From positions 1,609,277 to 1,649,276 of the forward strand of contig NZ_CP060395.1 of assembly GCF_015840335.1 (NCBI RefSeq): a stretch of DNA of 40,000 nt, written 5' to 3'. This DNA comes from Synechococcus sp. CBW1108. Its GTDB lineage: Bacteria; Cyanobacteriota; Cyanobacteriia; PCC-6307; Cyanobiaceae. A program made the translations under genes and the position numbers. Of this stretch, positions 4,068 through 35,924 are shown piece by piece. Every line of letters starts with the position of its first letter. Position 1 is the stretch's first letter. Below the pieces are notes generated by a model. It ran no database searches. It was not told the DNA's origin and worked only from the letters and a program-made list of their open reading frames with translations.

Positions 4068-4070
4068 ACG

Positions 4071-9853: not shown

Positions 9854-9858
9854 TCGCC

Positions 9859-13615: not shown

Positions 13616-13629
13616 TGGATTTACTACTT

Positions 13630-16407: not shown

Positions 16408-16510
16408 GGCTGTCTCCGATTCCGCGACCACGCTAGGTCTGATTTCGCTGGTCATGCTTCTCCTCCAACCACGGTGCGGCGCTGGGCGATGACGCGCCCC
16501 TCAGGGCTGA

Positions 16511-16813: not shown

Positions 16814-16907
16814 CAGGGCCAGGATCGGGGCGGAGTTGCTGCTCAGCTGCGGTTAGCCCTCTATGGGCCTTTGCCAGGCAGCCCAGCGGCTGAGCTGGGA
16901 AGGGGCC

Positions 16908-17069: not shown

Positions 17070-17094
17070 TCAACAAGCAGCATGGACCCAACGA

Positions 17095-17137
17095 ACACTC
17101 CCTCAGCTCTGGGTTTCGGGCCCGCAGGAGGGAGTGT
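17095..17137. repeat. perfect 10-bp inverted repeat (hairpin) at the island's left junction
   Basis: acactccctc (17095-17104) pairs with gagggagtgt (17128-17137) around a 23-nt loop. It lies between the sigma remnant and queD. Confidence 0.4.
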
Positions 17138-17338
17138 GCCAGGGGACGCACCGTGGCACACATGGCTAGCCTGCCCTCAACTTCGTAGGCCTAGTGAGAG
17201 ACCTCCGCGAGAGGACAAAGCAAAGGAGCGGGGACCACAACGCTCAGGTGCAGTTGCTTGGAAATCCAGACCCGTCAAGCTGGGCAGGATTGAGCAACAA
17301 CCAGTTTGGGCATAAATCAAACCCACACTCGCAATAAC

Positions 17339-17716
17339 ATGGAAATATTTAAGGACTTCACGTTTGAGGCCGCTCACTATCTGCCAAACGTCCCAGAAGG
17401 ACACAAATGCAGGCGACTTCACGGCCATTCCTTCAAGGTACGCATCTATGTGAAAGGGCCGACGGGATTGGAATCTGGTTGGGTGCAGGACTTTGCTGAA
17501 ATAAAAAGAGCCTTCAAGCCATACTACGAGCAACTAGACCACCATTACCTGAATGAGATAAAGGGGCTCGAAAATCCTACGTGTGAGAACCTAGCGGTCT
17601 GGATCTGGAGCAAGTTGAAAACAGACCTACCTCTATTGAGTCGCGTAGAGACCTTTGAGACTTGCACGAGTGGATGCATCTACTTCGGGCCGGACTTGGA
17701 AGGAGCTGAGCAATGA
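17339..17716 (+). CDS. queD: 6-carboxy-5,6,7,8-tetrahydropterin synthase QueD
   Basis: [34 protein letters not shown]...LDHHYLNEI is the classic QueD/PTPS signature. ATG at 17339 (internal to ORF 17306..17716). Confidence 0.85.
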
Positions 17717-19770
17717 AAGTAGTTGTTATCACGTCGTGCACTGGTGAAAAGACTGCTTCTCATAGCCGTCAGCTAACACTGGACGACTTCCAAGCAGGAC
17801 CGGAACATGTGCGAATGCGGGAGGCTGAACTCGCGGAGAATCTCGTTGACGCCGAAAGGCTCTACAGCGGCCAGCAACATCTTCGGCTGATGAGGGGAGT
17901 GGAGGCCTTCCGGTCGGCATATCCCCCCAATGGAACAGGACCAAGCCTTGATCTCCATATTCTCTCCGCAGGGTATGGCCTAGTACCAGGAGACAGGCAC
18001 ATCGCTCCATACGAGGCCACCTTTCAAGGGATGAAGGCCAAGGAGCTGGAGTCATGGGCATCCCAACTGCAGGTGGCTGCGTCATTGCGGAGGTGTCTTG
18101 ATCAACCTTATGACATAGGTCTTGTCCTCCTGGGCGACTCGTACCTCAAGGCTTGCCGGCTGGATGAGATTGAGAGAGTGGGAGGACCGACCCTGTTGTT
18201 ATGCGGAAAGAATGCCGCGGGCAGGATACCGAAAGTCGCCAATTTGAAGGTAGTCATTCTTACCAATGAAGAAGCTAAGCGCTTTTCATGCGGGTTAGTT
18301 GCGTTAAAAGGTGAAATGGCATCTCGAATCCTGCATGGTCTCGCAGACTCAACACTAGACCCCTTACAACTGGTGAATACTGATGAGCTTCTGGACGAGA
18401 TCTACCGCAACAATAAAGTGACACCAGGGACCCCTGGGCGGAGGGCTGCAACGCCAAAACCGGACGTTGATCAAGTTATTTCTCTACCGGACACCTGGCT
18501 CCAAAAGCCTCACAGGGAGAAGCTCAGCTACTTCATCCCAGAATGGGACGACCTGGTCGACCGTGATTTCGACTTTGGCAACGACATTCACTCAGGTGGA
18601 GGTGGAGATTGGTCAAACGAAGTCTATGCACATCAGCTGTATCCAGAACCAAACTATGATGGAATCTTGATTTCCAAAGTGGTAGCGGAAAAAAGCAAGA
18701 GGAAGAAAGAGCGCATCAATCGGCTTGGTGTACATCGTTATCTCCGTGTGCCACGCGAGTTTCCAATCATGGGAGACTGTGGGGCGTTTGGCTATATACA
18801 AGAAGCCGTTCCACCGTACAGCACAGAAGAAATTTTAGACTACTACACCCGCCTAGATTTTGACATGGGTGTATCTATTGATCATCTCATTGTATCTGCA
18901 ACAGAGTCCGTAAAGCAGGAGAGATATGGGCTTACTATCGCTAACGCGGAGGAGTTCCTTAAGGAACACAGAAAAGCAAAGCTTCCGTGGACACCAATCG
19001 GCGCCGTCCAAGGTTGGGATCCCAAAAGCTACGCAGCAGCGGCTAAGGACTATGTGGCCATGGGGTACCAGTACATCGGACTGGGTGGCCTCGTTAGAAC
19101 TTCAACCAGGGATATTCTTGAACTGTTGACGGCAGTTCATGAGGTGGTTCCATCCAATGTCAAGATCCATCTCTTTGGTCTGGCAAGAATAGATTCAATG
19201 AAGACTTTCTCTGATCTTGGGGTCAGCTCGGTTGATAGCGCCTCATTGCTCCGAAGGGCATGGATGGGTACAGGCCAGAACTATCTCAGCATTGAAGGTA
19301 AATTCTTCACCGCCATTCGCATTCCCGAAGCTAACAAGAGCTTTCGCGCCAAACGAATGGTCTCCGAGCGTCGAGCAAGCTCCTCAGAGGTCGAGAAGCT
19401 GGAACGGATATCACTCCATGCGCTACGCGAGTACGACGCTGGCAGAAAAAACATCGACGAGGTCCTCGATGCTGTAGAAGAGTATGACCGCCTAATTACA
19501 CCAGACCGAGATCCAACAAGAACTCTAATACGAGAAACACTAGAAGCCGCCCCCTGGAAGAGATGCCCTTGCGAGATCTGCAAACGCGATGGCATTGAGG
19601 TAGTGATCTTTAGGGGTAACAACCGTAATCGGCGCAGAGGATTTCATAATACTTATGTATTTTACCGTTTGCTTCAGAAAGTATTGGCTGGTGAGGCTGT
19701 GAGCTTCAAACGCAAACCGGACCAGCTGAACCTGTTTGGCGAGCCGGGGGAGATATCGGATGAGGTTTGA
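17713..19770 (+). CDS. fusion protein: uncharacterised N-terminal domain (about 230 aa) plus C-terminal TGT/DpdA-family transglycosylase domain with Zn motif
   Basis: C-terminal half carries TGT-family motifs: MGDCGAFGY (the DSGGFQ position), [11 protein letters not shown] (the GYAIGGL position), HLFGLAR...GVSSVDSAS (the nucleophile-Asp position) and CPCEIC...H (CxCxxC...H Zn site). N-terminal half reads ITSCTGEK...YSGQQH...ILSAGYGLV...IAPYEATF, which from memory resembles the DUF6884-type pattern. ATGA overlap with queD. Confidence 0.75.
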
Positions 19771-20941
19771 TGTGCACCTCCGTAAGACGGTACAACGTCA
19801 ACTTGCTTCCGTTGCCCAATCCATGGCTGATTGGGATTCGCATCAAAGCAATGTCGATATTCAAAAACGCCTTGCCTCAGCGATTCGCCCCTTTAGTCAT
19901 ACAACACGTTGGACGGGATACTGCGGTGGTGTTGATGGTACGGGCGACTTTCCTGCGATTTCCTATGCCGACTCCTTCGTGTACGTGAGCGTGGCGGCAG
20001 GAGCTCTTTACCGGTCGGACCCCGTGAGTGGCCTTAAGGAACTCGAGCAGGAGGCAAGTCCGTTGGTGGAATTCACCTGGCTGACATCTAGCCACCAGCA
20101 GCGCCAGAGTGCGCTGTTGGCTTCATTTGAGCAACTGGTAGGGACATCGGTGGACGATGTACTTCAGCATTCTGACTATGCTGATCTTGGCTCTTCAAGT
20201 GTGGAGAAGCGCAGGATTAACTCACTGATCATCCCTCCAGCCTATGACGCTGGAAATCTGGGCATACAATTACGAACCACGGCAGAACTGGCCGTAGCTC
20301 TTAAATTGATCGAATCGGCGCCCAAGGGGACGCTAGTTCTTACCGATGGCACGATGTCGCTCCCGCTTGCGGGCCGCTCGAAGCAGAGCCTGTTCTTTGA
20401 GCATCTGCGCCGCTATTGCTGCGTTCGAGCACGGGAGCGGGGAGTGGTCTTCGCTTCTCTCTCGAAGTCGAGTGGCTTACCCACTGGAATCAGGATTGAG
20501 GATGCAGCTAAGGCCGCTCTAGGAATCAATGAACCGGAACACTGGTTCGTAAGAGTACCCACGAAACAGCTCGACGACTGGAGTCTGTTCCCAGATGATG
20601 GTCCGCAGGTTCCTCCGACGGGAGCGGTGAGCTACTTGGTTCGCTTGCACCGCAAAAGCCCGGTCATGCGGCTCGACCTTGATCAGCAGTACTGGCAATC
20701 CGCAATTGCCACAGGCGACGTCGAGAAGAATGAGCAAAAGCTGTTTGCTTCACTCGACTACGTGAGCCACGATCAGCGTTCCTATGGGTATCCTTATCCC
20801 ATCAAGGCAGCTCATGATCGTGCTTCTCTCACAGAACACGAACGTACAGTGTTGCGTCAACAACTTGTTGAGTCTGCCGTTCAAGCAGGCATATCTCGAG
20901 ATGCCTTTCGTGACCCTTCTCAAATGACCGGGCATCGATAG
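19760..20941 (+). CDS. nurA: NurA-domain nuclease
   Basis: GGVDGTGDF, LVLTDGTMSL and SYGYPYPIKAAHDRASLT match the conserved NurA motifs. ATG at 19760 overlaps the upstream gene by 11 nt (the ORF-track start at 19736 is TTG). Immediately upstream of herA. Confidence 0.7.
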   Translation: MRFDVHLRKTVQRQLASVAQSMADWDSHQSNVDIQKRLASAIRPFSHTTRWTGYCGGVDGTGDFPAISYADSFVYVSVAAGALYRSDPVSGLKELEQEASPLVEFTWLTSSHQQRQSALLASFEQLVGTSVDDVLQHSDYADLGSSSVEKRRINSLIIPPAYDAGNLGIQLRTTAELAVALKLIESAPKGTLVLTDGTMSLPLAGRSKQSLFFEHLRRYCCVRARERGVVFASLSKSSGLPTGIRIEDAAKAALGINEPEHWFVRVPTKQLDDWSLFPDDGPQVPPTGAVSYLVRLHRKSPVMRLDLDQQYWQSAIATGDVEKNEQKLFASLDYVSHDQRSYGYPYPIKAAHDRASLTEHERTVLRQQLVESAVQAGISRDAFRDPSQMTGHR

Positions 20942-20949
20942 GAGGCAGG

Positions 20950-22761
20950 ATGGCATCACTCGAGCAACTTGTAGAGATTCTAGGCCAACGGTTTGGCGTG
21001 TTAGCTGAAAGCAGCACAACGCAGCTCACCGTCATCGCTCAGAACTCTGATGTAGCGATTGGAGACCTGTTCCTATTGCCGTGTCGACGAGGACCAGATC
21101 GCTTCTATGTGTTCCGGGCAACCGAGTATGCCAATGTCCTGAATCGAACGATCGACATCGGCGACGTCGCGCGCAACAAGTTGACGATGCCTGACTCCTA
21201 TTTTTCTGAAAACCTTGCTGAAGAGCAGCTGGTGGAGTTACGAGGTTTGATTCTGGGCTATGCGCAGCACGATCAGGATCAAGACGTCTGGCTGTTCTAC
21301 CGGCCTAGACGCTTGCCACAGCATCTTACGGATGTGTTCCGAGTTGATCCAAGCCGTGATGCATGTGGCCACGTCGTGGGTGAACTCCTCAGGTCTCAAC
21401 TGGGCTCAGCTGGCCTCCATATCGGGAATCTGCTGGCTGGAGAGGACGCTCTGACATCAGTACCGGTTTATCTACCGATCGCTGCATTGGCACATCACCT
21501 GGCTGTGTTTGGCAGGACAGGCTGTGGTAAGAGCAACTTGATCATGACCCTGCTCCACGAAGTGCTTCGCCACAACTTGGAGGTTAACCGGGGGCAACTG
21601 ATCGAAAGACGAGCATCCATCTTTGCGATTGACCCACACGATGAATTTCGGACATGGCACTCCAATTCGGGAGGGGCGGATGGCATCAGAGGACTAGTCA
21701 CTGCTCTTTCTGAGGGCGAAACAGAAGAGCTAGCAGCCCCTTTCTACTACCTGACCTCTCGCGATGTCCTTGATGGTCCGCTGGAGGCCCGGGTAACCCT
21801 GTCGAGAGCTGATATCACGCCCGATGATGTCGTGAGCATCATGGACTTCTCCGAACAGCAGGTGGCGTTCGCAAGACAGTTGTTTGGTGAGCATGGGGAA
21901 CGGTGGATCGGACGGCTCTTTGCAGGGGACGTGGATGACCCGAATGGTGACGAGGGGGGAGCACAGTTCCTTCCGGGAAGCATTGCAGCGGTGGAACGGC
22001 GCATGGGTTTCCTCGCCCATGGCGCGACCCGCTTGGTGAGCAGGTTTGATCCAGACGCAGGTCTGGCTTATCAGTCCAAGTTGCCTGACATCCTGTCCTC
22101 ACTCGAGCGAGGGCGACTGCTGATCGTGGACACGACTCTCCTAGGCGAACTCGAGCAGTTTTTGCTAAACACGATTGTCGCCCGTACACTGTTTGCTATG
22201 CGAAGAGCACTCCGTCTGGCCGATACCCCAGAGCGCCTGCGGCACGAGCTGTTTGGAGTCCTCGGAGTAGATGACGAAAACGGACGCATCGGACAGCGGA
22301 CCCTCGCTGACTCTCTATGGGAGCGCATTGAAAATGATGACGTTCCGTACCTTGATGGTACAAGGGTTCGCTCACCCGATGAACTGCCAGTCGTTCATAT
22401 TCTTGTTGAAGAAGCGCCGAGTGTTCTAAACCCTGTACGAATGAAGTTCGGAAGCGTCTTCCGCGACATCAGCCGTCAAGGTCGAAAGTTTGGCATTGGC
22501 CTGGGGTTAGTTAGCCAACAGGTTTCGGAGATCGATCGGGGGATTTTGACGCAGGTAAATACGCAGCTTACAATGGCACTAGGTAATGCAGATGAACGAC
22601 GTGAGGCTGTGCGAGTTGCCTCTACAGATATCGGCGGCTTTGCCCAGGAGCTACAAGTCCTTAGCCGCGGACAATTGGTGATGTCTACCAGTCTAAGAGA
22701 TGTAGCTTTGCCTGTACAAGTTGCAAGTTATGAGGGGACGAGAAGTAGACATGGCTGGTGA
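20950..22761 (+). CDS. herA: HerA/FtsK-class ATPase (HerA helicase-like)
   Basis: Walker A FGRTGCGKSN, Walker B-like VVHILVEEAPS, RKFGIGLGLVSQQVSEID...VNTQLTMAL is the typical HerA C-terminal region. GGAGG Shine-Dalgarno sequence at 20941-20945. Confidence 0.8.
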   Translation: MASLEQLVEILGQRFGVLAESSTTQLTVIAQNSDVAIGDLFLLPCRRGPDRFYVFRATEYANVLNRTIDIGDVARNKLTMPDSYFSENLAEEQLVELRGLILGYAQHDQDQDVWLFYRPRRLPQHLTDVFRVDPSRDACGHVVGELLRSQLGSAGLHIGNLLAGEDALTSVPVYLPIAALAHHLAVFGRTGCGKSNLIMTLLHEVLRHNLEVNRGQLIERRASIFAIDPHDEFRTWHSNSGGADGIRGLVTALSEGETEELAAPFYYLTSRDVLDGPLEARVTLSRADITPDDVVSIMDFSEQQVAFARQLFGEHGERWIGRLFAGDVDDPNGDEGGAQFLPGSIAAVERRMGFLAHGATRLVSRFDPDAGLAYQSKLPDILSSLERGRLLIVDTTLLGELEQFLLNTIVARTLFAMRRALRLADTPERLRHELFGVLGVDDENGRIGQRTLADSLWERIENDDVPYLDGTRVRSPDELPVVHILVEEAPSVLNPVRMKFGSVFRDISRQGRKFGIGLGLVSQQVSEIDRGILTQVNTQLTMALGNADERREAVRVASTDIGGFAQELQVLSRGQLVMSTSLRDVALPVQVASYEGTRSRHGW

Positions 22762-24541
22762 ACGTAAAGGACTAACCTACGAAGCTATTGTCAGGATCGC
22801 GCTTGACAAACTTGCCACACAGACTAAGGATTCACGCAATATCTTCTGGAATGCAAAGCCTGCTTCAATGACCATTGAGCCAGACTTTACTATTGGCCAA
22901 GAGGCTAATTCACCAGATGCAGTAATACTGGTAACGCATAGTGGCTCTGCCAAAGATTCTGAGAAGAAGTTCTGGAGGAATCTTGGAGAGCTCGTCGAGG
23001 CTAAGACAAGGCTTCTAAAGTCCCCTCTCGTCTACTCAATTGCTTTTGACTCAGTCATCAAGGAAGATCTCAAGCAGATACAGGCCTGTGCATTTGATGG
23101 CCAACTTGTAGTTGGTGATCACGCCTATGGATCAGCACTTCTAAGTTTTGTCTCGCAGTTCCACAATAAACTACCAAAGGACAAGGACGACAAGGTTGAT
23201 GCAATCAAGAATATAATATCAGATCGCGACTATTCTGATATTCTGAATGCGATCCTTCGACTGTCTGAACATATAGCAGACCTGCTAATTGGCCAAAATG
23301 ACGACCTCCAAGGAGCATGGGAGCTCCATAAGAGTCACGTTGCGGGCCGGATGCCAATGGCGCATGATTCATTAGTTAGACGTGGCATGCTCAAAGCAGC
23401 TCTTCTTGGAGAAATACCGGACCATTCAAAGCCAATGTCGAAAACGGCAACACTCATTGCGCAACAACTTCGACTGGCGCGTAAGGAAGATATCGCTACT
23501 CGCTCGATTGTAGGTTCGCGATTAGCTGACAAAGACCTGGTCTGGTTATCAAGGTCCAATCTAAATGCGATTGATGTCGCTAGGCTTGTTGAAAAGTTTG
23601 GGACTCAAGGATTCCAACGTCAGCTCATAAAGCTAAGATCTGTAGCACTACTTCCTGAGTTCTTGAGATATACACAGGCAAACCGATCAAAGCTCATTAC
23701 TCCAGAAGGGATGAAAGCTGCTTTGCAACAGCTTCATAAAGATCCATCTGACGCACTCTCGATCCAAGACGGAATTCCGTCCCCATCCACTGTCTGGATG
23801 TATGACTTTATTGCAGCAGTTGTAAAGGCTCGTTCAAAACGAGCGCAAGACTTCGGCTACTCCACGTTCGCGAAGTCACCGGATCCCAAAGGAAGAATGA
23901 TAGGCAATATGGATGTCGGCACATGGTGCAGTTGCTTCATGAACCAGTATTTTAACCGGAGTCCTAATTTTAGTGCCCCACCTGCTGCAATTGAACATTG
24001 CGCATCCATTCTTGCAGGTGCCCTTGCATCTGGTGATCCAGCCGAACTCAGGGGACCTATCGATGAGATCAGAGAACAATATATCAATAAAGAACTTGAG
24101 GTGGGCCTGCTTACTCATCGCGGATTCGATCCAGTTGGCTCGCTTATTATTGAAGCTCTTGAAGAGGCAGGTCTATCCCACCAATTAGAAACATGTCCAG
24201 GTATTTTTGCAGAACGTGCAAGATGCGATGGCCGCATCAGCAATCAACGCTCAGGTTCGACAACCTTGCTACGAACTAAGAATACATTGGTCAACTGGCA
24301 GTCTGCACATGACTCTCATACCAATGACAAGCGAAAGGAACTATGCGGTCGCATATCAGCAATTCGTTATTCCTGGAACCCCGTAGAAAGCAGGTGCACA
24401 AAAAAGGAAGGAATAGATAAGTTTATCTTAGTTGTTGACGGAACATGGTGTGAGGCCGACTTGCAAGCACTTGCAGCTTCTGGTTGGGACGAGATCTACT
24501 ATCCAGACGAAGTGGCAATCCTTATTAAGGCAATCGTCTGA
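22751..24541 (+). CDS. hypothetical protein (596 aa), no family recognised; possible nuclease-like terminal domains
   Basis: ATG at 22751 overlaps herA by 11 nt. N-terminus EPDFTIG...DAVILVTHSGSAKDSEKKFWRNLGEL and C-terminus TLVNWQSAHDSHTNDKRKELCGRI share a similar motif, which might indicate a restriction-endonuclease-like fold. This is very tentative. Confidence 0.6.
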   Translation: MAGERKGLTYEAIVRIALDKLATQTKDSRNIFWNAKPASMTIEPDFTIGQEANSPDAVILVTHSGSAKDSEKKFWRNLGELVEAKTRLLKSPLVYSIAFDSVIKEDLKQIQACAFDGQLVVGDHAYGSALLSFVSQFHNKLPKDKDDKVDAIKNIISDRDYSDILNAILRLSEHIADLLIGQNDDLQGAWELHKSHVAGRMPMAHDSLVRRGMLKAALLGEIPDHSKPMSKTATLIAQQLRLARKEDIATRSIVGSRLADKDLVWLSRSNLNAIDVARLVEKFGTQGFQRQLIKLRSVALLPEFLRYTQANRSKLITPEGMKAALQQLHKDPSDALSIQDGIPSPSTVWMYDFIAAVVKARSKRAQDFGYSTFAKSPDPKGRMIGNMDVGTWCSCFMNQYFNRSPNFSAPPAAIEHCASILAGALASGDPAELRGPIDEIREQYINKELEVGLLTHRGFDPVGSLIIEALEEAGLSHQLETCPGIFAERARCDGRISNQRSGSTTLLRTKNTLVNWQSAHDSHTNDKRKELCGRISAIRYSWNPVESRCTKKEGIDKFILVVDGTWCEADLQALAASGWDEIYYPDEVAILIKAIV

Positions 24542-24543
24542 CC

Positions 24544-26859: not shown

Positions 26860-26865
26860 CCTGCC

Positions 26866-28050: not shown

Positions 28051-28067
28051 TCGATTGCACTTTACGC
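28034..28067. terminator. hairpin spanning both stop codons of the convergent genes
   Basis: gcgtaaag (28034-28041) pairs with ctttacgc (28060-28067) around an 18-nt loop. Only 11 nt separate the two stops. Confidence 0.3.
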
Positions 28068-28973
28068 TCCTACCAGTCCAGTATGAAAGTACATGCTTGA
28101 ACTAGAAAGTGGCATGCTTGTGCGACTTGCCGTGGCCAGATTGCACAGGGCCAGGTGCAGCCGCTCCAAGGGAGAAGGCTCGACGAGGGCCGAATTCTTG
28201 GCTCCCCAGAGCTTTCCATCAGCAGCAAGCTTGACGTAGGAGCTGGAATCGACGGACTGCACCCCCCGTTTATAAAGCTGTTCGACAATGTCCGGTTGTC
28301 CGATGCCGAACACGTGTAGTGGACGGTCTTCTATAGCCTCTCGCACCGCATCCACGATGGCGAACAGGTGCTCCCGATCAAGCATGCGAGGAACCAGGCC
28401 TCCGATCGCGTATCCGTCGAACTCATGTGGGGCAAGCGCTTTAGCGCAGGTCCGGTAACTGTCAACATCCCATCCCTGCACGCAGGCGTAAAGCACGAGA
28501 TCACGTCGACGACGGTTCTCGAGAGCCCAGAGTGCATTGGCGATGGTTAGAGCAAGCCTTCGCTTGGCTTCCCGATTGGCCATAGAGGGGGGGATCGGAA
28601 AGTCAAGAGTGAAGGCGATATCCGCGTGAGCCTCTTGGAACTCAAGCACCTCCTTGGGATGGAGTGTCTCCGTGCCCTCCTCAAACACCCGCTCGAGGAT
28701 GCCCAGTCCTCCTCGCATCCGCACTTTGGCGTCTTTGAAAAGAGACGCAAACCCACCCGAGTCGATCATTAGGGGCAGATTAGGCCGCTCCTTCATCTGT
28801 CTCGCGTAGTGAAGGCTTACCATCACTGCCGGTGCCAGACGACGAAGATAGGGCCGAACCAAGTCATCGAGCGGGTACTTGTCCCCGAATGTGGTCACTG
28901 GTACGTAGGCCGGAAACGGAACGCAACCGTGAGCTGTTTGGATCTGGGCAGGTGCTGAGGATTCGGTTCCCAT
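28062..28973 (-). CDS. dpdA: stand-alone TGT-family transglycosylase, DpdA-like (303 aa), lacking the C-terminal Zn motif
   Basis: MIDSGGFASLF (the DSGGFQ catalytic-Asp motif), FDGYAIGGLVP (GYAIGGL), PLHVFGIGQP...GVQSVDSSSY (the nucleophile-Asp position). No CxCxxC...H. The start lies 2 nt after the stop of the upstream helicase. Confidence 0.8.
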   Translation of the reverse strand: MGTESSAPAQIQTAHGCVPFPAYVPVTTFGDKYPLDDLVRPYLRRLAPAVMVSLHYARQMKERPNLPLMIDSGGFASLFKDAKVRMRGGLGILERVFEEGTETLHPKEVLEFQEAHADIAFTLDFPIPPSMANREAKRRLALTIANALWALENRRRRDLVLYACVQGWDVDSYRTCAKALAPHEFDGYAIGGLVPRMLDREHLFAIVDAVREAIEDRPLHVFGIGQPDIVEQLYKRGVQSVDSSSYVKLAADGKLWGAKNSALVEPSPLERLHLALCNLATASRTSMPLSSSSMYFHTGLVGA

Positions 28974-28975
28974 GT

Positions 28976-31378
28976 TCAGCGCCCCTCAAACCAAAGTTGG
29001 AAAACATCAAGTCCCTTTGTGGTGCCCGGAGTGCTTTGGAGCAGCTCGCGGAGCTCCAAGAGATCAGGTTCCTTTCTGTGGAGCCGCACCGCAAGCAGGT
29101 GCTTGCAGTGGTTCCCTTTGGCGAAGTCGGCACAGTCGCATTGAATTGGTCTTTCGGGATGAGCGACGATCCGGTGTGGTTCAAGACCTCCACTCACCTC
29201 GTACTGATACCTACGCCGAAGTGTGACCTTGAGCTCAAGCGATCTGCGGAACCGATAGGGATCAACGATTGAAGGCCAGTCAGCACATGACGACTCTACG
29301 TATTCTCCTGACCTCATTTCACGGAATGCGAAGGCCGAACGTGTCTTGATCATTTCAGTTGCCGCTTCAATCCATTTCTTGGCTCGCTCGAGGGATACCC
29401 CACGGACCATCGCCACTTCCTCGGGCTCGGCGATGCAGAGGTCATCAATACTGCTGATGCCCACCTCGTGGAGCCTCCGTGCCAGTGTGCCACCAACCCC
29501 GGGCAGAAAGGTGAGCGTGACGGCTTCCTCATCGATACCGTGAGCCACCATGCTTGTCAAGGCGCGCACACGCTCCTGCAGCGTTGCTTCCTCCTCAAGC
29601 GGGATGCGCTGCTTCTCCTCGTCTTCGCCATCCTTCGGTGGAGTGATAACCGCAGTGCCTGCCGTCAGAATGCGTTCCAGGTTTTCGGTCAGGCGTCGAA
29701 TCTCGAAGGTGTAGCAGCCATACTCCTTGGCGACTGACTCAGCATCTCCGCTTCGTGTCCATGCCCGGGCCACGAGTGCCGTCTTCACGCATGACAGCAA
29801 ACGACGCCCCTTGCATCGGAGATGGGCCGTCGTACCTGCTTTGTCTCTCGAAAGAAGCGCTGAAGGTTCTGCAGATAGTGCGCTTGCCAACATCTCGAGG
29901 TCTTCGAAACCGGCCGGGATCAACGGCTCGCAGTCAGGTGTGTCTGTACAGAGCAGAAGGAGATCAAACAGAGTCAACTGATCCCGATCTTCTCCCAACA
30001 AGGCTTCCGATAGCCGCAGCGCGGTGTCTGGGCTCAGCATCTGGCGAACGGCAATGCGTCCGAGCCGTGTTGCCCGCAGCGTGAGCTTGTCTCCCCCCTC
30101 GTTTGGGGTCTCGATGAGCATCTGCGAGTTCAGCATCTTGTCAATCACAAGGCTGATCTTTGGAAGAGCCCTTTGATGATGAGCCAGGCTCCCAGTGAAG
30201 ACCCGATCTAGCTGGATGCGGGTCCGTGCCATCCCACTGGCCACTTCGGAGAGAATCTGCTCAGCGACGGCAGCCTCATGTCGCAGCCCTGACATGATCC
30301 GCTCAAACATTCCAGCCAGGTAGCGGCCTGTTTTCTGGCCCCAGCTCGGAGCAAGGAGCACCACCTCCCCTTGCTCGTCGAATCCTCGACGACCCGCCCG
30401 ACCTGCACGCTGCCAAACAGTGTTCACGTCCAACGGGACAAAGTCGTGTCCGTCAAACCCCTGGAGGTCGTACAGCACAACCTGCCTTGCTGGAAGGTTG
30501 AGACCCATTTCCAGAGTGCTTGTAGCGACGAGCACCTGCAGGCATTTTGCCCGGAAGCGTCCCTCGACCTCATGCCTCACGTCGGTTTGCAGACCAGCAT
30601 GGTGGTGTCTTGCATTCAGCCCCCCTTGACGCAGGTGTTCCGAAAGCTGTTCAGCTCGCCGGCGGCTCTGCACGAACACAAGGCTCTGTCCACCAGCCGC
30701 TACGCATTGACGTACCTGCTCCTCGAGGAGCCCCGGCTTGTCGGTGGCCTTCTGAAAGCTGACAACCTTCCATTCCAGGGGCAATGGTCGCCAGTCATTC
30801 CGATAGCTGACTCCCCCAAGCCAGTCAGCCAGCTCATCAGCATTGCCCAAGGTGGCAGACAGACCCACGATGCGCGCATGGGGGTTCAATCGACGGATAC
30901 GAGACAGCGCGCCCTCAAGCCGTGCACCACGGCTCGGATCCCCGAGCAGGTGGAACTCATCGGCCACGATCAGGTCAACTGCGGGGATCCAGGCCCAATG
31001 ACTCCTCCAGTGGCGCGTGCAAGCGTCCAGCCGTTCCGGGGTCATGATCAGCACGCTGGCGCGCTCAAAGGGGACCGGATACCGCTGCCTCCCTCCGTAC
31101 TCCCCTGTAAACACACCGATCTCATGCCCGGAGAAGCTCCGCTTCCATCGTTCGACAAGCTCATTGGCCAAGGCTCGAAGGGGGGTGAGGTAGATGGCAC
31201 GTCCACCCCGCTCGATGGTTTCGGCGATCGCCCTCTCGGCGAGCCAGGTTTTGCCGGTCCCAGTAGGAAGCTGAAGCACGCAGCTGAATCCGCTGCCGAG
31301 CAGATCCCTGTCTACGACTTCCTGCTGGGCCGGATTCAGGCGGGCCGCTGGTTCCGAGATCATCGCAGTCCTTCGCAT
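28976..31378 (-). CDS. Hel308/Ski2-like SF2 helicase with C-terminal HhH and SWIM zinc finger
   Basis: LQLPTGTGKT (motif I), VADEFH (motif II), LSATLGN, VATSTLEMGLNLP and QRAGRAGRRG (motif VI). HhH: LPGVGGTLARRLHEVGISSIDDL. SWIM: CDCADFAKGNHCKH. Start set at the ATG MRRTAMISEP (cat at 31376-31378), because the longer ORF to 31606 overlaps the divergent HTH gene. Confidence 0.8.
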   Translation of the reverse strand: MRRTAMISEPAARLNPAQQEVVDRDLLGSGFSCVLQLPTGTGKTWLAERAIAETIERGGRAIYLTPLRALANELVERWKRSFSGHEIGVFTGEYGGRQRYPVPFERASVLIMTPERLDACTRHWRSHWAWIPAVDLIVADEFHLLGDPSRGARLEGALSRIRRLNPHARIVGLSATLGNADELADWLGGVSYRNDWRPLPLEWKVVSFQKATDKPGLLEEQVRQCVAAGGQSLVFVQSRRRAEQLSEHLRQGGLNARHHHAGLQTDVRHEVEGRFRAKCLQVLVATSTLEMGLNLPARQVVLYDLQGFDGHDFVPLDVNTVWQRAGRAGRRGFDEQGEVVLLAPSWGQKTGRYLAGMFERIMSGLRHEAAVAEQILSEVASGMARTRIQLDRVFTGSLAHHQRALPKISLVIDKMLNSQMLIETPNEGGDKLTLRATRLGRIAVRQMLSPDTALRLSEALLGEDRDQLTLFDLLLLCTDTPDCEPLIPAGFEDLEMLASALSAEPSALLSRDKAGTTAHLRCKGRRLLSCVKTALVARAWTRSGDAESVAKEYGCYTFEIRRLTENLERILTAGTAVITPPKDGEDEEKQRIPLEEEATLQERVRALTSMVAHGIDEEAVTLTFLPGVGGTLARRLHEVGISSIDDLCIAEPEEVAMVRGVSLERAKKWIEAATEMIKTRSAFAFREMRSGEYVESSCADWPSIVDPYRFRRSLELKVTLRRRYQYEVSGGLEPHRIVAHPERPIQCDCADFAKGNHCKHLLAVRLHRKEPDLLELRELLQSTPGTTKGLDVFQLWFEGR

Positions 31379-31414
31379 CGAACGCCTCTCAATCCGACTG
31401 ACCACTAGCCTAGT

Positions 31415-32050
31415 ATGCGTGAGCCGGCTGGACGCCAAGGAAGTGCCAATAAACATGGCGTGGAACGCGCCGAGAGCGGTTTGCTCTCCCGGAACACCCG
31501 CTTCCTGCTGTGGAAGCAGGAGATTCCACGAGATCAGTGGGGCACCTGGCTGGAGGCCCGGCTCAGTTGGTCGGCCACTCGAATCAAGCAGCTCGTGCGG
31601 GGTCAACTTGACGACAGCCGACTTGGGTACGAGGAAGTCAGCGAACTCTCAGGCCTGTTCAGGATGAACGCTGACGAACAGGAGCTCCGCTACCGGGATT
31701 TGGTCACGGAACGCTGCGACATCCTTCGTGAAAATCTGACGTTTCTGTTCGACAGCCTGGAGCGAGGTGGCAAGAAGCTGCTGGCCGAAGCTCTCAGTAT
31801 TGATCCCACCACTGTGTCCCGTTGGCTCAACGGGTCTTTTGCGCCGAACAATCTCACGCTTGCCTCGCTAAGCAATTACTTCGGGCTCCCCCCTGGTACG
31901 GATCTAACTAAGGATCCCATTTTTCTTTCTGTTGATCCAGTCGCCGAAGCAGAGCAGCGCCAGTGGGTGGCCAACCATCTGAAGGAACTCTCAGCAGAGG
32001 AGTTTCGTTTGCTCTATCCCGCCTTCCGCCGGCTCCTTGAAGACCGATGA
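31415..32050 (+). CDS. XRE-type helix-turn-helix regulator (two HTH-like segments)
   Basis: LLAEALSIDPTTVSRWLNGSFAPN is a classic XRE HTH. N-terminal NTRFLLWKQEIPRDQWGTWLEARLSWSATRIKQLVRG looks like a second one. The stop overlaps the next gene's ATG (ATGA at 32047). The start is ATG 31415 or GTG 31457. Confidence 0.65.
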   Translation: MREPAGRQGSANKHGVERAESGLLSRNTRFLLWKQEIPRDQWGTWLEARLSWSATRIKQLVRGQLDDSRLGYEEVSELSGLFRMNADEQELRYRDLVTERCDILRENLTFLFDSLERGGKKLLAEALSIDPTTVSRWLNGSFAPNNLTLASLSNYFGLPPGTDLTKDPIFLSVDPVAEAEQRQWVANHLKELSAEEFRLLYPAFRRLLEDR

Positions 32051-34386
32051 AGCGTTTCAGTGCTGGAACCACAGGCGAAGCTCCAGCGGCGACTTTGGCC
32101 TCCGCGAAGAGGTTACGAGTCTCATGCAAATGGAAATCAGTGATTGATGTTTGTACGAAGGGGAATCCGCTTCGCCCTGTTCAGGCCAAAGCCCTTCTTG
32201 AGTACCGGATGCTGGATAGCCGGCGTCACATGGTCGTCTGTGCTCCGACGAACAGTGGGAAGTCATTGATCGGTAATCTCGCGTTGTTTGAGGCACTCCT
32301 GGCGGGCAAGCGTGCCGTACTCCTCGAGCCTCTGCGCTCTCTTGCCCAAGAGAAAGCCGATGAACTCGCTGAGCTTCTTGTCCCATTGAGCACTTCCCTT
32401 GGGAAAGTCAACCTATGTCTGACAACAGGGGATTACAGGCTTGAAAACTCCACCTTCCAAGATACCGCCCCTGATCGTGGCGAATTGGTCATCGCCACTC
32501 CTGAACGGTTCGAGGCCATTCTTCGTAATCCAGCCAACCATCCTTGGGTGGACTCCATTGGCTGTGTCGTTGTCGACGAGGCGCACCTAATCGGGTCCCC
32601 TCGGCGTGGCCCAACGCTTGAGTTATTAATTGCGACTCTTCTGAGCTCGACGTTACCACCCCGTCTCGTTCTGTTGACGGCTACAGCTGGCCAACCTGAA
32701 CGCTTAAGTGAGTGGCTCTCGCCATGTGATCTTGTTCAAGAACATTGTCGAACACCTCCGCTCAGCACTGAAGTGTGGAGCCTGGACGAGGCTGACGATG
32801 TAGATACGGTTCTGGCACAGTCGATTTCTAAGACGCTAAGCGATCCCTGTGCTTCTGTGCTCATTTTCGTCTTTAAGCGAGCATCAGCGAACGCCTTGGC
32901 TGTGTTTTTGCAGAAATCCCTCGGTATTCCTGCCGGTGCATATCACTCTGGGATGACGGCAGAGCAACGTCGGGAGGTACGCCATCGTTTTTCAGATGGC
33001 CGACTCCGCTGCGTTGTGACAACGTCTGCGTTAGCGATGGGCGTGAATCTCCCCGCAACCCACGTCTACGTTCGAGACACCACATTCTTTGGTCATGGCG
33101 CCCTTGGCGCGGACGAAGTCCTTCAGATGGTTGGGCGTGCTGGCCGCGGTGATCGTGCTGGGCATGCGGTAGTGCTGCTTCGTGCCAGTGATACCTGGAC
33201 AGGCCTGGAGCTTGCGAACGCTCTGCGAACACAAGATCTTCCACGCTTACGGTCTGCCTTTGACCCTGTTTTCACCAAGCGCTCTGTGCCAGGTCACGAG
33301 GACGACTCTGGTGTAGCAGCACAAGCTATTGCCTCTTGCCTGAGCCGATGTGGAGAGAAGGGTCTCAGTTTGGCTGATCTCAACATCATCCTTGGCAACT
33401 CCTTGGCAGGACCTGCCCTCACCCGTCGAATAGAGCCTGCCCTTCGCTGGTTAGAAGATCCTGCTCGTGTCCTGGCGTACTGCGGTGAGGACCAGAATCA
33501 CCACCTGACAGTGCTCGGTCTTCGTGGCGTTCGCTCAGTGCTACCCCTGGGATACGTTGCAGGCCTGGGCCAGCTTGTACGCGACTTGATGTGGTTGGAT
33601 CCAACTGATCGAATGCTGTCCCAGTGGTCAGCCCTCGATCATCTGCTGGTGATGACTTTGCTCAGTGACAGAACACCTTGCCTGCGCCGCTTCAGTTCCA
33701 AGCTGGCCGAGCAGATTGACGGATGGCATGAGAGCCGGATCCACCTTGATAAGTCACTCTTGTTCCGTGAGTGGATTTGTGGAGCTGAAGGCTCATCAAG
33801 ACCTGATGAGCTCTTTGGATCCCTCGGCCTCTGTTCGAACCACCGAGAAAACTTGGCTTCTTCACACCATAAGAACGCATACCTCGCGATGCTTGGTGCG
33901 ATTCTGTTGGACGAAAGGTCTCGCGGTGTCCCAGTTATTGATCTAGAGCGAAGATGGGGGATTGCGGGGCTTGAGGGCATGCAGGAGTCTTGGAGAGACA
34001 CAGCGTTATGGCTTCTTGCGGGTCAGGCGCAGATTTTTGAGCTCCGAACCTTCTACCATCACCTCGTTGAGCATTGCGAAGCCGACCGCGAGCGTATTCA
34101 GCGAGTGAAGAAACAGCTGCGAATCATTCGCCATCAAACCTTCGATTTGATGGAACGGATTAAGTATTGCTCTGCACTCGGGCCTCTGATGCGTGGCGTG
34201 CGAGGCATGCTCAGCTCAAGCACTTCCCAATCAGTGGGGCCTGGCACCATCAAGAGGCTTGAAGAAGCTGGCATCCTCACCTTCGCTGACGTCGCTGCTC
34301 TCGATGTCGAAGCGATGGTGGATCTTGGAGTTCAACGCCGCTACGCAAAACAAATCCGTGCCTATGTACGACGACGTCTCAGATAA
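32047..34386 (+). CDS. Hel308/Ski2-like SF2 helicase (second copy, no SWIM)
   Basis: CAPTNSGKS (motif I), VVDEAH (motif II), LTATAG, TTSALAMGVNLP and QMVGRAGRG (motif VI). C-terminal HhH-like VGPGTIKRLEEAGILTFADV. Confidence 0.8.
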   Translation: MKRFSAGTTGEAPAATLASAKRLRVSCKWKSVIDVCTKGNPLRPVQAKALLEYRMLDSRRHMVVCAPTNSGKSLIGNLALFEALLAGKRAVLLEPLRSLAQEKADELAELLVPLSTSLGKVNLCLTTGDYRLENSTFQDTAPDRGELVIATPERFEAILRNPANHPWVDSIGCVVVDEAHLIGSPRRGPTLELLIATLLSSTLPPRLVLLTATAGQPERLSEWLSPCDLVQEHCRTPPLSTEVWSLDEADDVDTVLAQSISKTLSDPCASVLIFVFKRASANALAVFLQKSLGIPAGAYHSGMTAEQRREVRHRFSDGRLRCVVTTSALAMGVNLPATHVYVRDTTFFGHGALGADEVLQMVGRAGRGDRAGHAVVLLRASDTWTGLELANALRTQDLPRLRSAFDPVFTKRSVPGHEDDSGVAAQAIASCLSRCGEKGLSLADLNIILGNSLAGPALTRRIEPALRWLEDPARVLAYCGEDQNHHLTVLGLRGVRSVLPLGYVAGLGQLVRDLMWLDPTDRMLSQWSALDHLLVMTLLSDRTPCLRRFSSKLAEQIDGWHESRIHLDKSLLFREWICGAEGSSRPDELFGSLGLCSNHRENLASSHHKNAYLAMLGAILLDERSRGVPVIDLERRWGIAGLEGMQESWRDTALWLLAGQAQIFELRTFYHHLVEHCEADRERIQRVKKQLRIIRHQTFDLMERIKYCSALGPLMRGVRGMLSSSTSQSVGPGTIKRLEEAGILTFADVAALDVEAMVDLGVQRRYAKQIRAYVRRRLR

Positions 34387-34441
34387 TCATTGTCTCGCTG
34401 ACAGTTCGGAATACACCCTTCTCTCAGATACAGAAGTTAGG

Positions 34442-35122
34442 TCAGGTTCCGCTGCTGGTCAGATCGGGGCGACCAGCTTCCCGTAGGGCCTCATCGCGGA
34501 TACGGCAGCTGTCGCAGACACCACATGGATGGTCGCCACCCGCATAGCAGCTCCAGGTGCGTTCGGTCGGCACCCCAAGCCGCAATGCCTCTTGCACGAT
34601 TCGGGCCTTGTTCCATTGCACCAATGGAGCCCATAGCAGGGGAGCTCTTCCTTCCCTCCCTGCCTTGCTCGCCAGTTGGGCAAGCTCCTGGTATGCCTTC
34701 AAGTAGTCCGGACGACAGTCCGGATACCCCGAATAGTCGACTGCGTTGAAGCCCAGGATGATCCGCTCAGCACCTCGGGCCTCAGCAAGGCTGAGAGCAA
34801 GCGCAATGAACACCGTATTGCGGCCAGGGACGTAGGTACTGGGGATACCTCCGCCGAGTACCCCTTCAGCAGGCAGTGACTGCTTCAAATCGGTCAGGGA
34901 GGAGCCACCCCATGCGGAGAGGTCCACCGAGATGGTGACATGTTCAACGAGCTCAAGCGCGTTGGCCAACTCGGCAGCGGCTTTGAGCTCACGCCGATGT
35001 CGCTGCCCGTAGTCGAAGGAGAGCCCGATCACACTCAGCCCTTCCTCGCAGGCCAGTGCAGCCGCAGTTGCGGAGTCAAGCCCACCGGAGAACAGGGCAA
35101 TGGCTTTGGGCTTGTCAAGCAT
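34442..35122 (-). CDS. queC: 7-cyano-7-deazaguanine (preQ0) synthase QueC
   Basis: [15 protein letters not shown] (PP-loop SGGxDS), [13 protein letters not shown], and the C-terminal Zn cysteines WSCY...CGVCDSC. ATG at cat 35120-35122 (the ORF-track start at 35146 is GTG). Confidence 0.9.
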
Positions 35123-35249
35123 TCTTCCGCGCTTGCCTGTGACCACGCCCCATCATCGCGTGGCGACCCGCTCGATTGCACACAATTCCAGGCCTTTTGG
35201 TGCTTGGTTGCCCGCAAAAGTTCAAAGTGAACGTTCTGTGTCTATGCGT

Positions 35250-35924
35250 TCACAAGATGCCCAGCCATTTATGGGCTTGCAGGCTCAGGCGCCAGGCAGG
35301 GTGGCTTTTAACGAAGTCGATCGAGAGCCGCAAACCTTCAGAGCTTTCCCATCCAGGCTGGAGGAACAACTTGGCATCGCCATCACACCTTGAGTGAATC
35401 GTGGATTCAGCCATCAGGAGCGCAAACTCCAAGTCTGCGGGTTCATGCACAATGACCTTTAGCTCGTGACACGCATCAAGCAGTTCCTGCCGCGGGGGCG
35501 CATGGCGCTTCGGGGAAAGCGTGATCCAATCAGGTGATCCAGAAATTGGGTCAACGCCACTTGTTTCGAGATGGATCGGGAGTGAAGTGGCACTCCGAAG
35601 CTCGCTTGCTAGCGGAGCCAGGTCGTGGTGCAATGGTTCTCCGCCGGTGATCACAATAAACGCGGCTCCATTCGCTTGTGCGTGGTGTGCTTCTCTTGCT
35701 GTCTCAATAAGAGTTTGATGGGGGTGTAGGTCTTTCGGCCATGAGTGCTTGGTATCACACCAAGTGCACCCGACTGTGCATCCCCCAAGTCGGATGAAGA
35801 AAGCACTTCGACCTGCATGAGCTCCCTCCCCCTGCAGAGAATGGAATGTCTCAACGATCGGGAGTGACCCGGGGTTTATGCCTTCATTCTTGGCATGGCC
35901 ATGCTTTGTAGACATAACGGTCAT
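35250..35924 (-). CDS. queE: 7-carboxy-7-deazaguanine synthase QueE (radical SAM)
   Basis: ETFHSLQGEGAHAGRSAFFIRLGGCTVGCTWCDT is the QueE radical-SAM cluster motif (Cx14CxxC type), with ITGGEP. Alternative ATG at 35915. Confidence 0.85.
   Translation of the reverse strand: MTVMSTKHGHAKNEGINPGSLPIVETFHSLQGEGAHAGRSAFFIRLGGCTVGCTWCDTKHSWPKDLHPHQTLIETAREAHHAQANGAAFIVITGGEPLHHDLAPLASELRSATSLPIHLETSGVDPISGSPDWITLSPKRHAPPRQELLDACHELKVIVHEPADLEFALLMAESTIHSRCDGDAKLFLQPGWESSEGLRLSIDFVKSHPAWRLSLQAHKWLGIL

Follow-up and report, generated by a model that had tools for sequence, protein, structure and literature searches.

A probable 7-deazaguanine-based modification-restriction island related to Dpd in Synechococcus sp. 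CBW1108

Introduction

To our knowledge, Dpd is the only characterised bacterial system in which a 7-deazaguanine serves as the self mark, and its mechanism of restriction is still unknown. The DpdA enzyme of Salmonella depends on the general acid/base Asp95, Asp130, the nucleophile Asp256 and a CxCx2C..H zinc site, and it requires the ATPase DpdB, for which it has been suggested that ATP pays for a helicase-like opening of the DNA (PMC10164549). The DpdC family corresponds to DUF6884 (PMC12235509). The subject of this study is a low-GC block of 18.6 kb (about 17.25-35.95 kb) within a 40,000-nucleotide stretch of Synechococcus sp. CBW1108 DNA (NZ_CP060395.1, positions 1,609,277 to 1,649,276; this whole stretch is the window, and its coordinates are used below), in which 13 intact, tightly packed genes, among them a dpdA, probably make up a single Dpd-related modification-restriction system based on 7-deazaguanine, of a type for which no description was found.

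Two other groups of systems come close to this gene set. BRIGADE combines a 7-deazaguanine cluster with two paralogous superfamily 2 (SF2) helicases and a PD-(D/E)xK or PLD nuclease (bioRxiv 10.1101/2025.09.15.676423), and BRC joins a HerA/FtsK protein, with or without GNAT and a tRNA-guanine transglycosylase (TGT) homologue, to PglZ, a BrxC-like protein (DUF6079), a STAND NTPase and DUF4007 (PMC12839542). Because the GATOR-GC survey of dpd islands asked for both dpdA and dpdB, it would miss the type considered here.

Gene content of the island

The left half of the block (17-28 kb) has a GC content of 46-55% and the right half (28-36 kb) of 54-61%, with flanks at 62-70%, as the initial annotation of this DNA had noted, and by its composition the block is foreign and was probably acquired horizontally. 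The PADLOC (PADLOC-DB v2) and Pfam scans covered all 13 proteins of the island, and the NCBIfam (20.0) scan the ten other than QueD, QueC and QueE. The genes are as follows.

17339..17716, + strand: queD, 6-carboxytetrahydropterin synthase, 125 amino acids (aa) (Pfam PTPS 3.7e-36; CRRLHGH, a CxxxHGH motif)
17713..19770, + strand: g2, 685 aa, a fusion of two domains, one DpdC-like (DUF6884, about aa 1-260) and one a DNA-guanine transglycosylase of the bacterial DpdA type (aa 266-659)
19760..20941, + strand: NurA (g3), NurA-type RNase H-fold nuclease, 393 aa (Pfam NurA 21.2 bits, cut-off 21)
20950..22761, + strand: HerA (g4), HerA/FtsK-type hexameric translocase ATPase, 603 aa (DUF87 2e-15; 58 bits, cut-off 23.2)
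22751..24541, + strand: g5, hypervariable cassette protein, 596 aa, no annotated family
24544..26859, + strand: UvrD (g6), UvrD/PcrA/AddA-like superfamily 1 helicase, 771 aa (Pfam UvrD-helicase 5.9e-46)
26866..28050, + strand: g7, Cas4/RecB/AddB-type PD-(D/E)xK nuclease, 394 aa (Pfam PDDEXK_1 8.5e-10)
28062..28973, - strand: TGT2 (g8), compact TGT-superfamily paralogue, 303 aa (Pfam TGT, PF01702, 1e-25)
28976..31378, - strand: HelSWIM (g9), Hel308/Ski2-like SF2 helicase, about 800 aa (DEAD 2.4e-28, Helicase_C 4e-19)
31415..32050, + strand: HTH protein (g10), XRE-family helix-turn-helix protein, 211 aa, divergent from HelSWIM (Pfam HTH_3 8.3e-7)
32047..34386, + strand: Hel2 (g11), Hel308-like SF2 helicase (DEAH), 779 aa (DEAD 5.4e-25, Helicase_C 3.5e-15)
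34442..35146, - strand: queC, preQ0 synthase, 234 aa (Pfam QueC 4.2e-69; SGGLDS and CGVCDSC)
35250..35924, - strand: queE, 7-carboxy-7-deazaguanine synthase, 224 aa (Radical_SAM 4.7e-9 and Fer4_12; CTVGCTWC, a Cx3Cx2C motif)

Inspection of the sequences shows that every enzyme of the island retains its catalytic motifs. The families proposed in the initial annotation (two TGT proteins, NurA, HerA, an orphan, UvrD, a Cas4/RecB-like nuclease, a Hel308 pair and an XRE protein) were verified by Pfam and other models, and its layout, with queE and queC at the right edge, is borne out by ATGA overlaps of 4 nucleotides (nt) at 17713 (queD/g2) and 32047 (HTH/Hel2), overlaps of 11 nt at 19760 (g2/NurA) and 22751 (HerA/g5) and, elsewhere in the packed runs, spacers of 8 (between NurA and HerA), 2, 6, 11 and 2 nt. 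At the left edge its coupling of queD to g2 through ATGA stands but its start at 17070 does not, since 17070-17338 is intergenic and queD begins with the ATG at 17339 (a TTG lies upstream at 17306). The island was likewise found to contain no queF, queA, queG/H or integrase gene, as stated there. PADLOC-DB v2 returned nothing for NurA, g5 or the nuclease, and NCBIfam nothing for these three or the HTH protein, with TGT2 matching the TGT superfamily model only.

DpdA, its fused DpdC-like domain and the supply of preQ0

The TGT domain of g2 (Pfam PF01702) matches the PADLOC DpdA model at 1.2e-121, the NCBIfam DpdA equivalog with 443.7 bits (cut-off 200) and the structure of Salmonella DpdA (PDB 7UI4) at 5.9e-81. 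Equivalents of D95, D130 and D256 are retained in GDCGAF, SIDH and SVDS, as is the zinc site (CPCEIC..H, of the form CxCx2C..H), and the residue corresponding to Salmonella DpdA H181 is a Gln, as in tRNA TGTs. By sequence the segment of aa 266-659 is a bona fide bacterial DpdA, and this genuine family member, whose catalytic and zinc residues are intact, is along with the preQ0 genes one ground for placing the island in one system related to Dpd.

In the initial annotation DpdC had gone unrecognised, but a DpdC-like domain forms the N-terminus of the same protein (aa 1 to about 180-260), with 34.9 bits against the Pfam DUF6884 cut-off of 30 and a match to the PADLOC DpdC models (4.5e-9) that spans model positions 3-186 of 299 only; the NCBIfam DpdC model gave no match for g2 at 1e-3. 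The DpdC::DpdA fusion is also found in nine related loci (L003, L004, L007, L010, L015, L097, L098, L100 and L101). A further locus (L016) had been taken to encode a DUF6884-only protein, which would have made TGT2 the lone writer; on alignment it proved to be a truncated DpdC::DpdA fusion and the argument was dropped. An apparent DUF6884-g5 fusion (L012) turned out to be a degraded locus. The absence of DpdB noted in the initial annotation is upheld, as no DpdB, ParB or DndB match was obtained for the 13 proteins in PADLOC and Pfam or for the ten scanned with NCBIfam, and the intergenic gaps are too short for a hidden gene.

The preQ0 genes of the island are queD, queC and queE, the last of which has tblastn matches to the QueE genes of related loci, with a low median identity of 32% across 16 loci. 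Neither FolE nor FolE2 is encoded in the island, so the preQ0 set of four is incomplete here and the earlier description of the island as self-contained does not hold; GCHY-1/FolE2 is carried by three of the relatives (L003, L004 and L100).

Recurrence of the gene set

The same gene set was recovered from three different seeds. Searching with g5 gave Desulfosporosinus fructosivorans and two long metagenome contigs, one of them fully colinear with the window and having FolE2 in addition; searching with TGT2 gave an Acidobacteriia metagenome-assembled genome and other contigs with the same neighbours and, besides these, 80 metagenome loci; and searching with NurA gave the full set in Singulisphaera sp. 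GP187 and another long contig. A g5 profile scan of 185,579 species genomes added Vicinamibacterales, a deltaproteobacterial metagenome-assembled genome, Competibacter, Chthoniobacteraceae, Oscillospiraceae, Methylotetracoccus and others, and in the g5-bearing loci mapped by tblastn the gene order is the same, at 45-74% identity. The hosts span cyanobacteria, Acidobacteriota, Planctomycetota, Verrucomicrobiota, Bacillota and Proteobacteria as well as cyanobacterial plasmids, and the order is the same or similar, with 13 genes or 14 where FolE2 is present, and kept across at least seven phyla at 47-74% identity. The plasmid-borne copies include those of Picosynechococcus sp. PCC 73109 (on a 38-kb plasmid), Nostoc sp. 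NIES-3756 and Nostoc sp. MS1, in which PGAP labels parts singly ('tRNA-guanine transglycosylase DpdA', 'NurA', 'DEAD/DEAH box helicase') and no system. Whatever the seed, none of the contexts examined had the NurA-like, g5 or TGT2 families outside this gene set. The recurrence in similar order, the agreement of the g5, TGT2 and NurA seeds and the stop/start overlaps argue for one system, and we conclude that the set is a recurrent, horizontally mobile functional unit, not a chance mosaic.

Not all parts recur equally. Among the TGT2-seeded metagenome loci with enough flank, HelSWIM adjoins TGT2 in 49 of 50, and TGT2 is accompanied by the HTH protein in 34/42, Hel2 in 26/30, the PDDEXK nuclease in 21/33, UvrD in 19/30 (the last two about 63%), HerA in 13/18 and NurA in 12/18 (about 70%), with DpdC::DpdA present in seven of the nine fully flanked loci. 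In L004 the UvrD-PDDEXK pair lies at the opposite end. The constant core is TGT2-HelSWIM, with HTH-Hel2, and the UvrD-nuclease and HerA-NurA pairs are frequent and not obligatory. In Desulfosporosinus (L001) the 21.7 kb that were read hold QueC, QueD and QueE along with TGT2, and no DpdC::DpdA was seen there. A minimal set of UvrD, a hypothetical protein, a TGT2-like protein and a helicase is found on Deinococcus plasmids, as at 11230-16873 of D. ficus pDFI3 (L099), where a 28.8-kb stretch has neither a que nor a dpdA gene annotated. At 5974-7266 of D. gobiensis P2 (L102) the TGT2-like match is covered by a 430-aa coding sequence annotated as a helicase, which may be a (truncated) TGT2-helicase fusion.

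It is against this variation that the block has to be weighed as a set of independent units (a modification-only DpdC::DpdA with its que genes, HerA-NurA, UvrD with the Cas4-like nuclease, and TGT2 with the Hel308-like helicases and the HTH protein) that share an integration hot-spot and do not cooperate. The module content does vary in the proportions just given, L004 is rearranged, the Deinococcus set is minimal, and the slot around g5 and HerA gathers unrelated cargo (AbiEii, PIN, LlaJI, GmrSD_N and SACS/NOV_C proteins; see below). Such an assembly is nonetheless judged quite improbable, as it sits poorly with the confinement of three families to this set in the contexts examined, the gene order kept across the phyla, the 11-nt overlaps that join genes of different 'modules' (g2/NurA and HerA/g5) and the operon that the que genes and DpdC::DpdA share with NurA-HerA in most loci.

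The variable cassette g5

The g5 family has 582 representatives, and g5 itself has no match in Pfam, PADLOC, NCBIfam, PHROGs or the PDB sequences. Its AlphaFold2 model, with a mean predicted local distance difference test (pLDDT) score of 91, shows in Foldseek weak, non-significant likeness to restriction endonucleases only; the N-terminal domain has the restriction-endonuclease-like topology alpha-beta-beta-beta-alpha-beta and conserved E11, P44-D45, K73, E80, E83 and K85 (a K/E-rich helix). On this model 'nuclease-like' is a lead, not a result.

Median identity of g5 to the window protein is 31% over 16 loci, with most other components at 46-63%. The most direct view of its turnover comes from metagenome contig Ga0164292_10001308 (L017), in which the DNA is 88-89% identical to the window over 18257-22733 and 24544-34385 and the break between coincides with the g5 open reading frame (ORF). 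A 635-aa gene stands there instead, whose likeness to g5 is confined to an N-terminal motif of 50 residues (hhalign E 0.003). Elsewhere the g5 neighbourhood holds proteins of 610-716 aa without a family, or SACS/NOV_C proteins (L014). Between UvrD and HerA-NurA, the Picosynechococcus locus (L097, 16131-21108) carries two pairs, DUF6088-AbiEii and PIN-RHH, and one more PIN gene, and the Nostoc NIES-3756 locus (L098, 21173-24499) an LlaJI-family and another restriction endonuclease; in Desulfosporosinus (L001, 8208-13753) a GmrSD_N (DUF262) protein accompanies two divergent paralogues of g5, one of 580 aa and one of 581 aa that shares 23% identity with g5. The g5 slot thus behaves as an arms-race component or a cargo hot-spot inside the system, and the precise swap in a near-identical island, being typical of arms-race components, argues for a role in defence. 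The exchange of this 596-aa cassette also amounts to a natural experiment on which part faces arms-race selection.

The same contig lacks the equivalent of 34386-35478, which is queC and the 3' part of queE, and its own queC and queE are decayed, which implies that a host pathway can supply preQ0. The right junction is still there, host TPR gene next to queE included (78.7% identity), and in this related picocyanobacterium the island occupies the chromosomal site that it has in the window.

The TGT2-HelSWIM core, the HTH protein and Hel2

TGT2 passes a single NCBIfam model, tgt_general (90.4 bits, cut-off 47.6), and stays below the equivalog cut-offs for DpdA (56.9 vs 200), arcTGT (75 vs 350) and bacterial Tgt (63 vs 307). 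In the PDB it matches 1IQ8 at 8.6e-15 and DpdA (7UI4) at 2.4e-6, and in PHROGs only the generic tgt family at 1e-3. By these scores TGT2 is nearer to the archaeosine and bacterial tRNA TGTs than to DpdA and falls outside the described DpdA subfamilies (bDpdA and DpdA1-4). Across 28 family members D71 (in DSGGF), D124, Q166 and G191-G192 are invariant, and D242 is conserved in at least 90%; the zinc subdomain is missing, and the residues for base-exchange catalysis are all retained. Mean column identity across phyla is 66%, and more than 2,000 proteins fall in the family at E <1e-10, although other TGT-family proteins may be among them. No relative of TGT2 or g5 was present in 2.9 million viral contigs, and a search of 50,697 phage genomes, made with TGT2 only, gave nothing above 27% identity, which argues against a phage self-protection module.

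HelSWIM, which lies 2 nt upstream of TGT2, carries HHH_5 (4e-10) and Helicase_dom4_arc (1.4e-3) matches, and its best NCBIfam models, both for archaeal DNA helicases of the Hel308 type, are sub-cut-off (PRK02362.1 347.4 vs 887; helicase_Hel308 232.9 vs 1200). The SWIM finger of the initial annotation is present as a C-terminal CxC..CxH pattern, but its Pfam score is sub-threshold (2.1e-3; 18.0 vs 19.6 bits). The listed ORF of 876 aa runs to a TTG at 31606 and shares 192 bp with the divergent HTH gene; since homologues align from residue 76-90, the likely start is the ATG at 31378 or 31363. With the ATG at 31378 the divergent intergenic gap is 36 bp, and L017 is arranged alike; because the gap is this short, the promoters of HelSWIM and the HTH gene must fall within coding sequence. 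The HTH protein is fast-evolving (median identity 34% over 16 loci). In Hel2 a C-terminal helix-hairpin-helix (HHH) domain is indicated by HHH_5 (8e-4), and in NCBIfam it scores best against PRK02362.1 (170 bits, cut-off 887), with 45.9 bits for DpdF (cut-off 550).

Two roles can be envisaged for TGT2 within a modification-restriction system. On balance it would be a writer or a helper of the writer, which is slightly the more probable side of an even question and is favoured by the Desulfosporosinus locus, with its que genes and TGT2 and no DpdA in 21.7 kb; a reader or effector role would be possible but is clearly less probable. Insertion of 7-deazaguanine by TGT enzymes is irreversible. Building on this, the second role could take the form of a restriction by base excision or transglycosylation, in which the helicase would scan the DNA and TGT2 attack its guanines. 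The 7-deazaguanine inserted by DpdA would not be excisable, invader DNA would receive a TGT2-DNA adduct or an abasic site, and the helicase-nuclease pairs (HerA-NurA and UvrD with the Cas4-like nuclease) would convert these lesions into breaks. The co-occurrence of DpdC::DpdA and TGT2, which do not replace each other in the seven flanked and nine named loci, suggests non-redundant roles, and it can be added that TGT2 is strongly conserved whereas g5 and the HTH protein evolve fast, that it lacks a zinc subdomain conserved across the DpdA family and scores nearer the tRNA TGTs, and that in Deinococcus the minimal set occurs, with no que or dpdA gene annotated in the D. ficus stretch examined. 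Set against these points, the conserved residues of TGT2 are those for full base exchange, so that sequence cannot separate excision from exchange; the Desulfosporosinus variant leaves TGT2 as the only candidate writer in the stretch read; and we know of no precedent for a TGT that acts as a restriction enzyme. Such a reader/effector is held to be unlikely as an account of the island, and so too is the view of the near-universal, translationally coupled TGT2-Hel308-like core as a new restriction device that interrogates DNA by base-exchange chemistry. Were it true, one superfamily would both write (DpdA) and read (TGT2) the self mark, and TGT2 would be a sixth, undescribed subfamily of DNA-acting TGTs.

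The HerA-NurA and UvrD-nuclease pairs

Pfam NurA covers the NurA-like family, which numbers 427 proteins, only at the margin. The AlphaFold2 model of the island protein (pLDDT 88.5) has NurA structures as all of its top 13 Foldseek matches in the PDB (2YGK at 3.9e-10), and the matches include 3TAZ and the HerA-NurA complexes 7F6D and 9X1N; D59, E176, D196 and H352-D353 are invariant, and identity to repair NurA proteins is 12-14% in the structural alignments. HerA matches PADLOC HerA (1.1e-21) and mad8 (9.8e-16) and has the Walker A motif GRTGCGKS. By the modelled fold, the acidic triad and the adjacency of the two genes, this is a nuclease-translocase pair of the HerA-NurA type. UvrD scores best as GajB-like in PADLOC (1.2e-36), and its NCBIfam equivalogs are all far under cut-off. 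In g7, D164, E198, D202-Y-K204 and Q226..Y230 are invariant in seven homologues together with C27, C361, C364 and C370, and these RecB-type motifs and the predicted iron-sulfur cluster (C..CxxCx5C) place it among the nucleases of the Cas4/AddB type.

A proposed mode of action

A modification-restriction system is the reading that the evidence probably supports. In such a system QueD, QueE and QueC would make preQ0 from the product of the host GTP cyclohydrolase. The DpdA domain of g2, whose family and active site are evident, would then put preQ0 in the place of guanine in self DNA, where the DpdC-like domain fused to it might turn the inserted base into the amide (dADG). Because DpdB is absent, and because helicase-like opening has been suggested as the use of its ATP, an ATP-driven motor of the island may fill its role. 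TGT2-HelSWIM would most probably be a second unit for base exchange, in which the helicase assists by laying the target guanine open, either beside DpdA or helping it. The Hel308-like motors would engage unmarked DNA, and its degradation would fall to UvrD with the Cas4-type nuclease, which resemble a split AddAB/RecB, and to HerA-NurA, a pair known for end resection. The swappable g5 might serve as a variable nuclease-like effector or sensor, and the HTH protein could regulate the divergent operons. That the island serves in defence is argued also by its foreign composition and by the BrxL and PIN/Phd toxin-antitoxin genes nearby.

Several observations weigh against this reading. FolE is missing from the island; the DpdC-like domain of g2 is, by its match scores, distant from canonical DpdC; the restriction logic, with a component that would read the mark, is drawn by analogy with Dpd; the reading does not account for the co-occurrence of two catalytically intact TGT paralogues; and the UvrD-nuclease and HerA-NurA pairs, which are missing from about one third of the loci and shift in position, may be semi-independent. 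NurA, HerA, UvrD and Hel308 are, moreover, classical repair proteins too.

This last point also speaks for a function outside defence, as a DNA-repair or epigenetic module or as self-protection of a plasmid or integrative element against host restriction by means of 7-deazaguanine marks. The plasmid location in Nostoc, Picosynechococcus and Deinococcus would fit, as would the locus (L015) that adjoins an integrase and an HTH_17 excisionase-like gene, and phage DpdA systems serve anti-restriction (PMC6884629). A function of this kind is nevertheless highly improbable given the absence from viral contigs, the hypervariable cassette and the embedded toxin-antitoxin and restriction-endonuclease cargo that are hallmarks of defence loci, the BrxL and PIN/Phd neighbours, and a sporadic distribution suggestive of horizontal gene transfer where lineage-wide presence would be expected of housekeeping repair.

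Edges and neighbourhood of the island

The left compositional boundary lies at about 17.2-17.3 kb, the GC content falling from about 70% to about 50% over 17.1-17.3 kb between the Phd gene and queD. The intervening 16456-17338 (about 880 bp) is without a convincing gene and without an Rfam match, including the preQ1 riboswitch. At the right edge (35921-35924) the start of queE (56% GC) overlaps by 4 nt the stop of an upstream, host-like TPR gene (35921-37036, 69.5% GC), so that the compositional boundary coincides exactly with a translationally coupled junction. An integrase, att-like direct repeats and a tRNA target were sought at the island ends, with no integrase and only chance-level repeats of 15-29 nt found. 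A tRNA-Gly(tcc) of 84 nt called by ARAGORN at 38854-38937 has no Rfam support, lies inside an ORF (38570-39544) and is probably a false positive; the Rfam scan of the whole window returned no family, no tRNA and no preQ1 riboswitch. A scan for sigma-70 promoters and terminators gave fewer sites than in shuffled sequence and is thus uninformative.

Outside the island, the stretch 13630-16455 holds a full-length brxL (PADLOC 4e-281), which stands alone and is the sole BREX-type gene of the window, in which no PglX, PglZ or BrxA-C was found. In the same stretch the PIN/Phd toxin-antitoxin pair (15684-16130 and 16114-16455) is directly upstream of BrxL on the same strand, and an unannotated ORF of 224 aa (12941-13615) is just downstream of it. 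The left flank (1-12600) resembles a mobile element or prophage remnant, with a pocket of 48.8% GC at 1-2 kb that holds a SAM methyltransferase (1047-2090), and with a DUF4055 portal-like protein (2155-3579), a Peptidase_C39-like protein of 658 aa (7584-9560) and a sigma-70/ECF-type factor (11736-12533).

Comparison with known systems

Canonical Dpd (dpdA-K of Salmonella enterica serovar Montevideo) and the island have in common preQ0 genes within the locus, a bDpdA-type enzyme with the same catalytic Asp residues and zinc site, a DUF6884 domain, many helicase-like proteins and the character of a horizontally transferred island (PMC10164549, PMC12235509). Salmonella Dpd needs DpdB, a ParB-like ATPase, for insertion and the island is without it, and where Dpd has DpdC as a separate protein, the island has a distant DpdC-like domain fused to DpdA. 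Of the NCBIfam dpd models, that for DpdA passed its equivalog cut-off; for DpdD-K there was helicase-core similarity only (DpdF 45.9 bits vs 550, DpdE 27.9 vs 500), and the island lacks two defining parts of the canonical cluster, DpdB and DpdD-K. No PLD, BrxC, DUF1998 or SNF2 domain was found in the island proteins, and the PADLOC DpdF matches rank below HamB and BrxH. Unlike Dpd, the island has TGT2, the Hel308-like pair, UvrD with a Cas4-like nuclease, HerA-NurA and the variable cassette.

BRIGADE is likewise a Dpd relative of non-canonical make-up, and the two share 7-deazaguanine genes, two SF2 helicases and a PD-(D/E)xK nuclease. BRIGADE, reported only from halophilic archaea, has YprA-like helicases (DUF1998), DpdG and DpdHI/BrxC, whereas the island has Hel308/Ski2-like helicases with HHH, no DUF1998, DpdG or BrxC, and bacterial hosts. 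With BRC it shares a HerA/FtsK translocase, a TGT homologue and the lack of DpdB; PglZ, DUF6079/BrxC-like protein, STAND NTPase, DUF4007 and GNAT are absent from the 13 proteins, and BRC for its part is without NurA, UvrD, the Cas4-like nuclease and the Hel308 pair. Membership of BRC and of BRIGADE was rejected for want of these defining components. The HerA-NurA end-resection complex of archaea and bacteria offers the same adjacency of HerA (DUF87) and NurA and the same NurA fold, but in the island the pair sits in a modification locus and without Mre11 or Rad50. In PADLOC the Hel308-like helicases score best against HamB of Hachiman (9.3e-44) and UvrD against GajB of Gabija (1.2e-36); these matches span the motor cores only, no HamA (DUF1837) or GajA (OLD/TOPRIM) is present, and both systems were rejected, although the idea common to them, that a helicase sensing aberrant DNA licenses a nuclease, may carry over.

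The searchable literature on Dpd, GATOR-GC, BREX/BRC, YprA/BRIGADE, Dnd/HerA and phage DpdA yielded no account of such a set of genes, and that the system has already been described somewhere is a minority possibility, if a real one. Specific models for the g5 and TGT2 families are lacking in Pfam, NCBIfam, PADLOC v2 and PHROGs, and current defence-system finders would see only 'DpdA' and generic helicases. Of the initial suggestion of an undescribed variant or a hybrid of several modules, the non-canonical make-up and the lack of a description are sustained, but the hybrid gives way to a recurrent syntenic system across phyla. The presence of the set in hosts that are cultured and in part tractable (Picosynechococcus sp. 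PCC 73109, Nostoc sp. NIES-3756, Singulisphaera sp. GP187, Desulfosporosinus fructosivorans and Synechococcus sp. CBW1108) makes these questions directly testable.

Relative to Dpd, the island keeps the writer, that is DpdA with a DpdC-like domain, and replaces all else, so that DpdB would here be dispensable or substituted, and the effectors proposed for it, HerA-NurA and the pair of UvrD and the Cas4-type nuclease, are helicase-nuclease machines that are well understood. Comparison of the two architectures could reveal which functions are essential for self/non-self discrimination based on deazaguanine.

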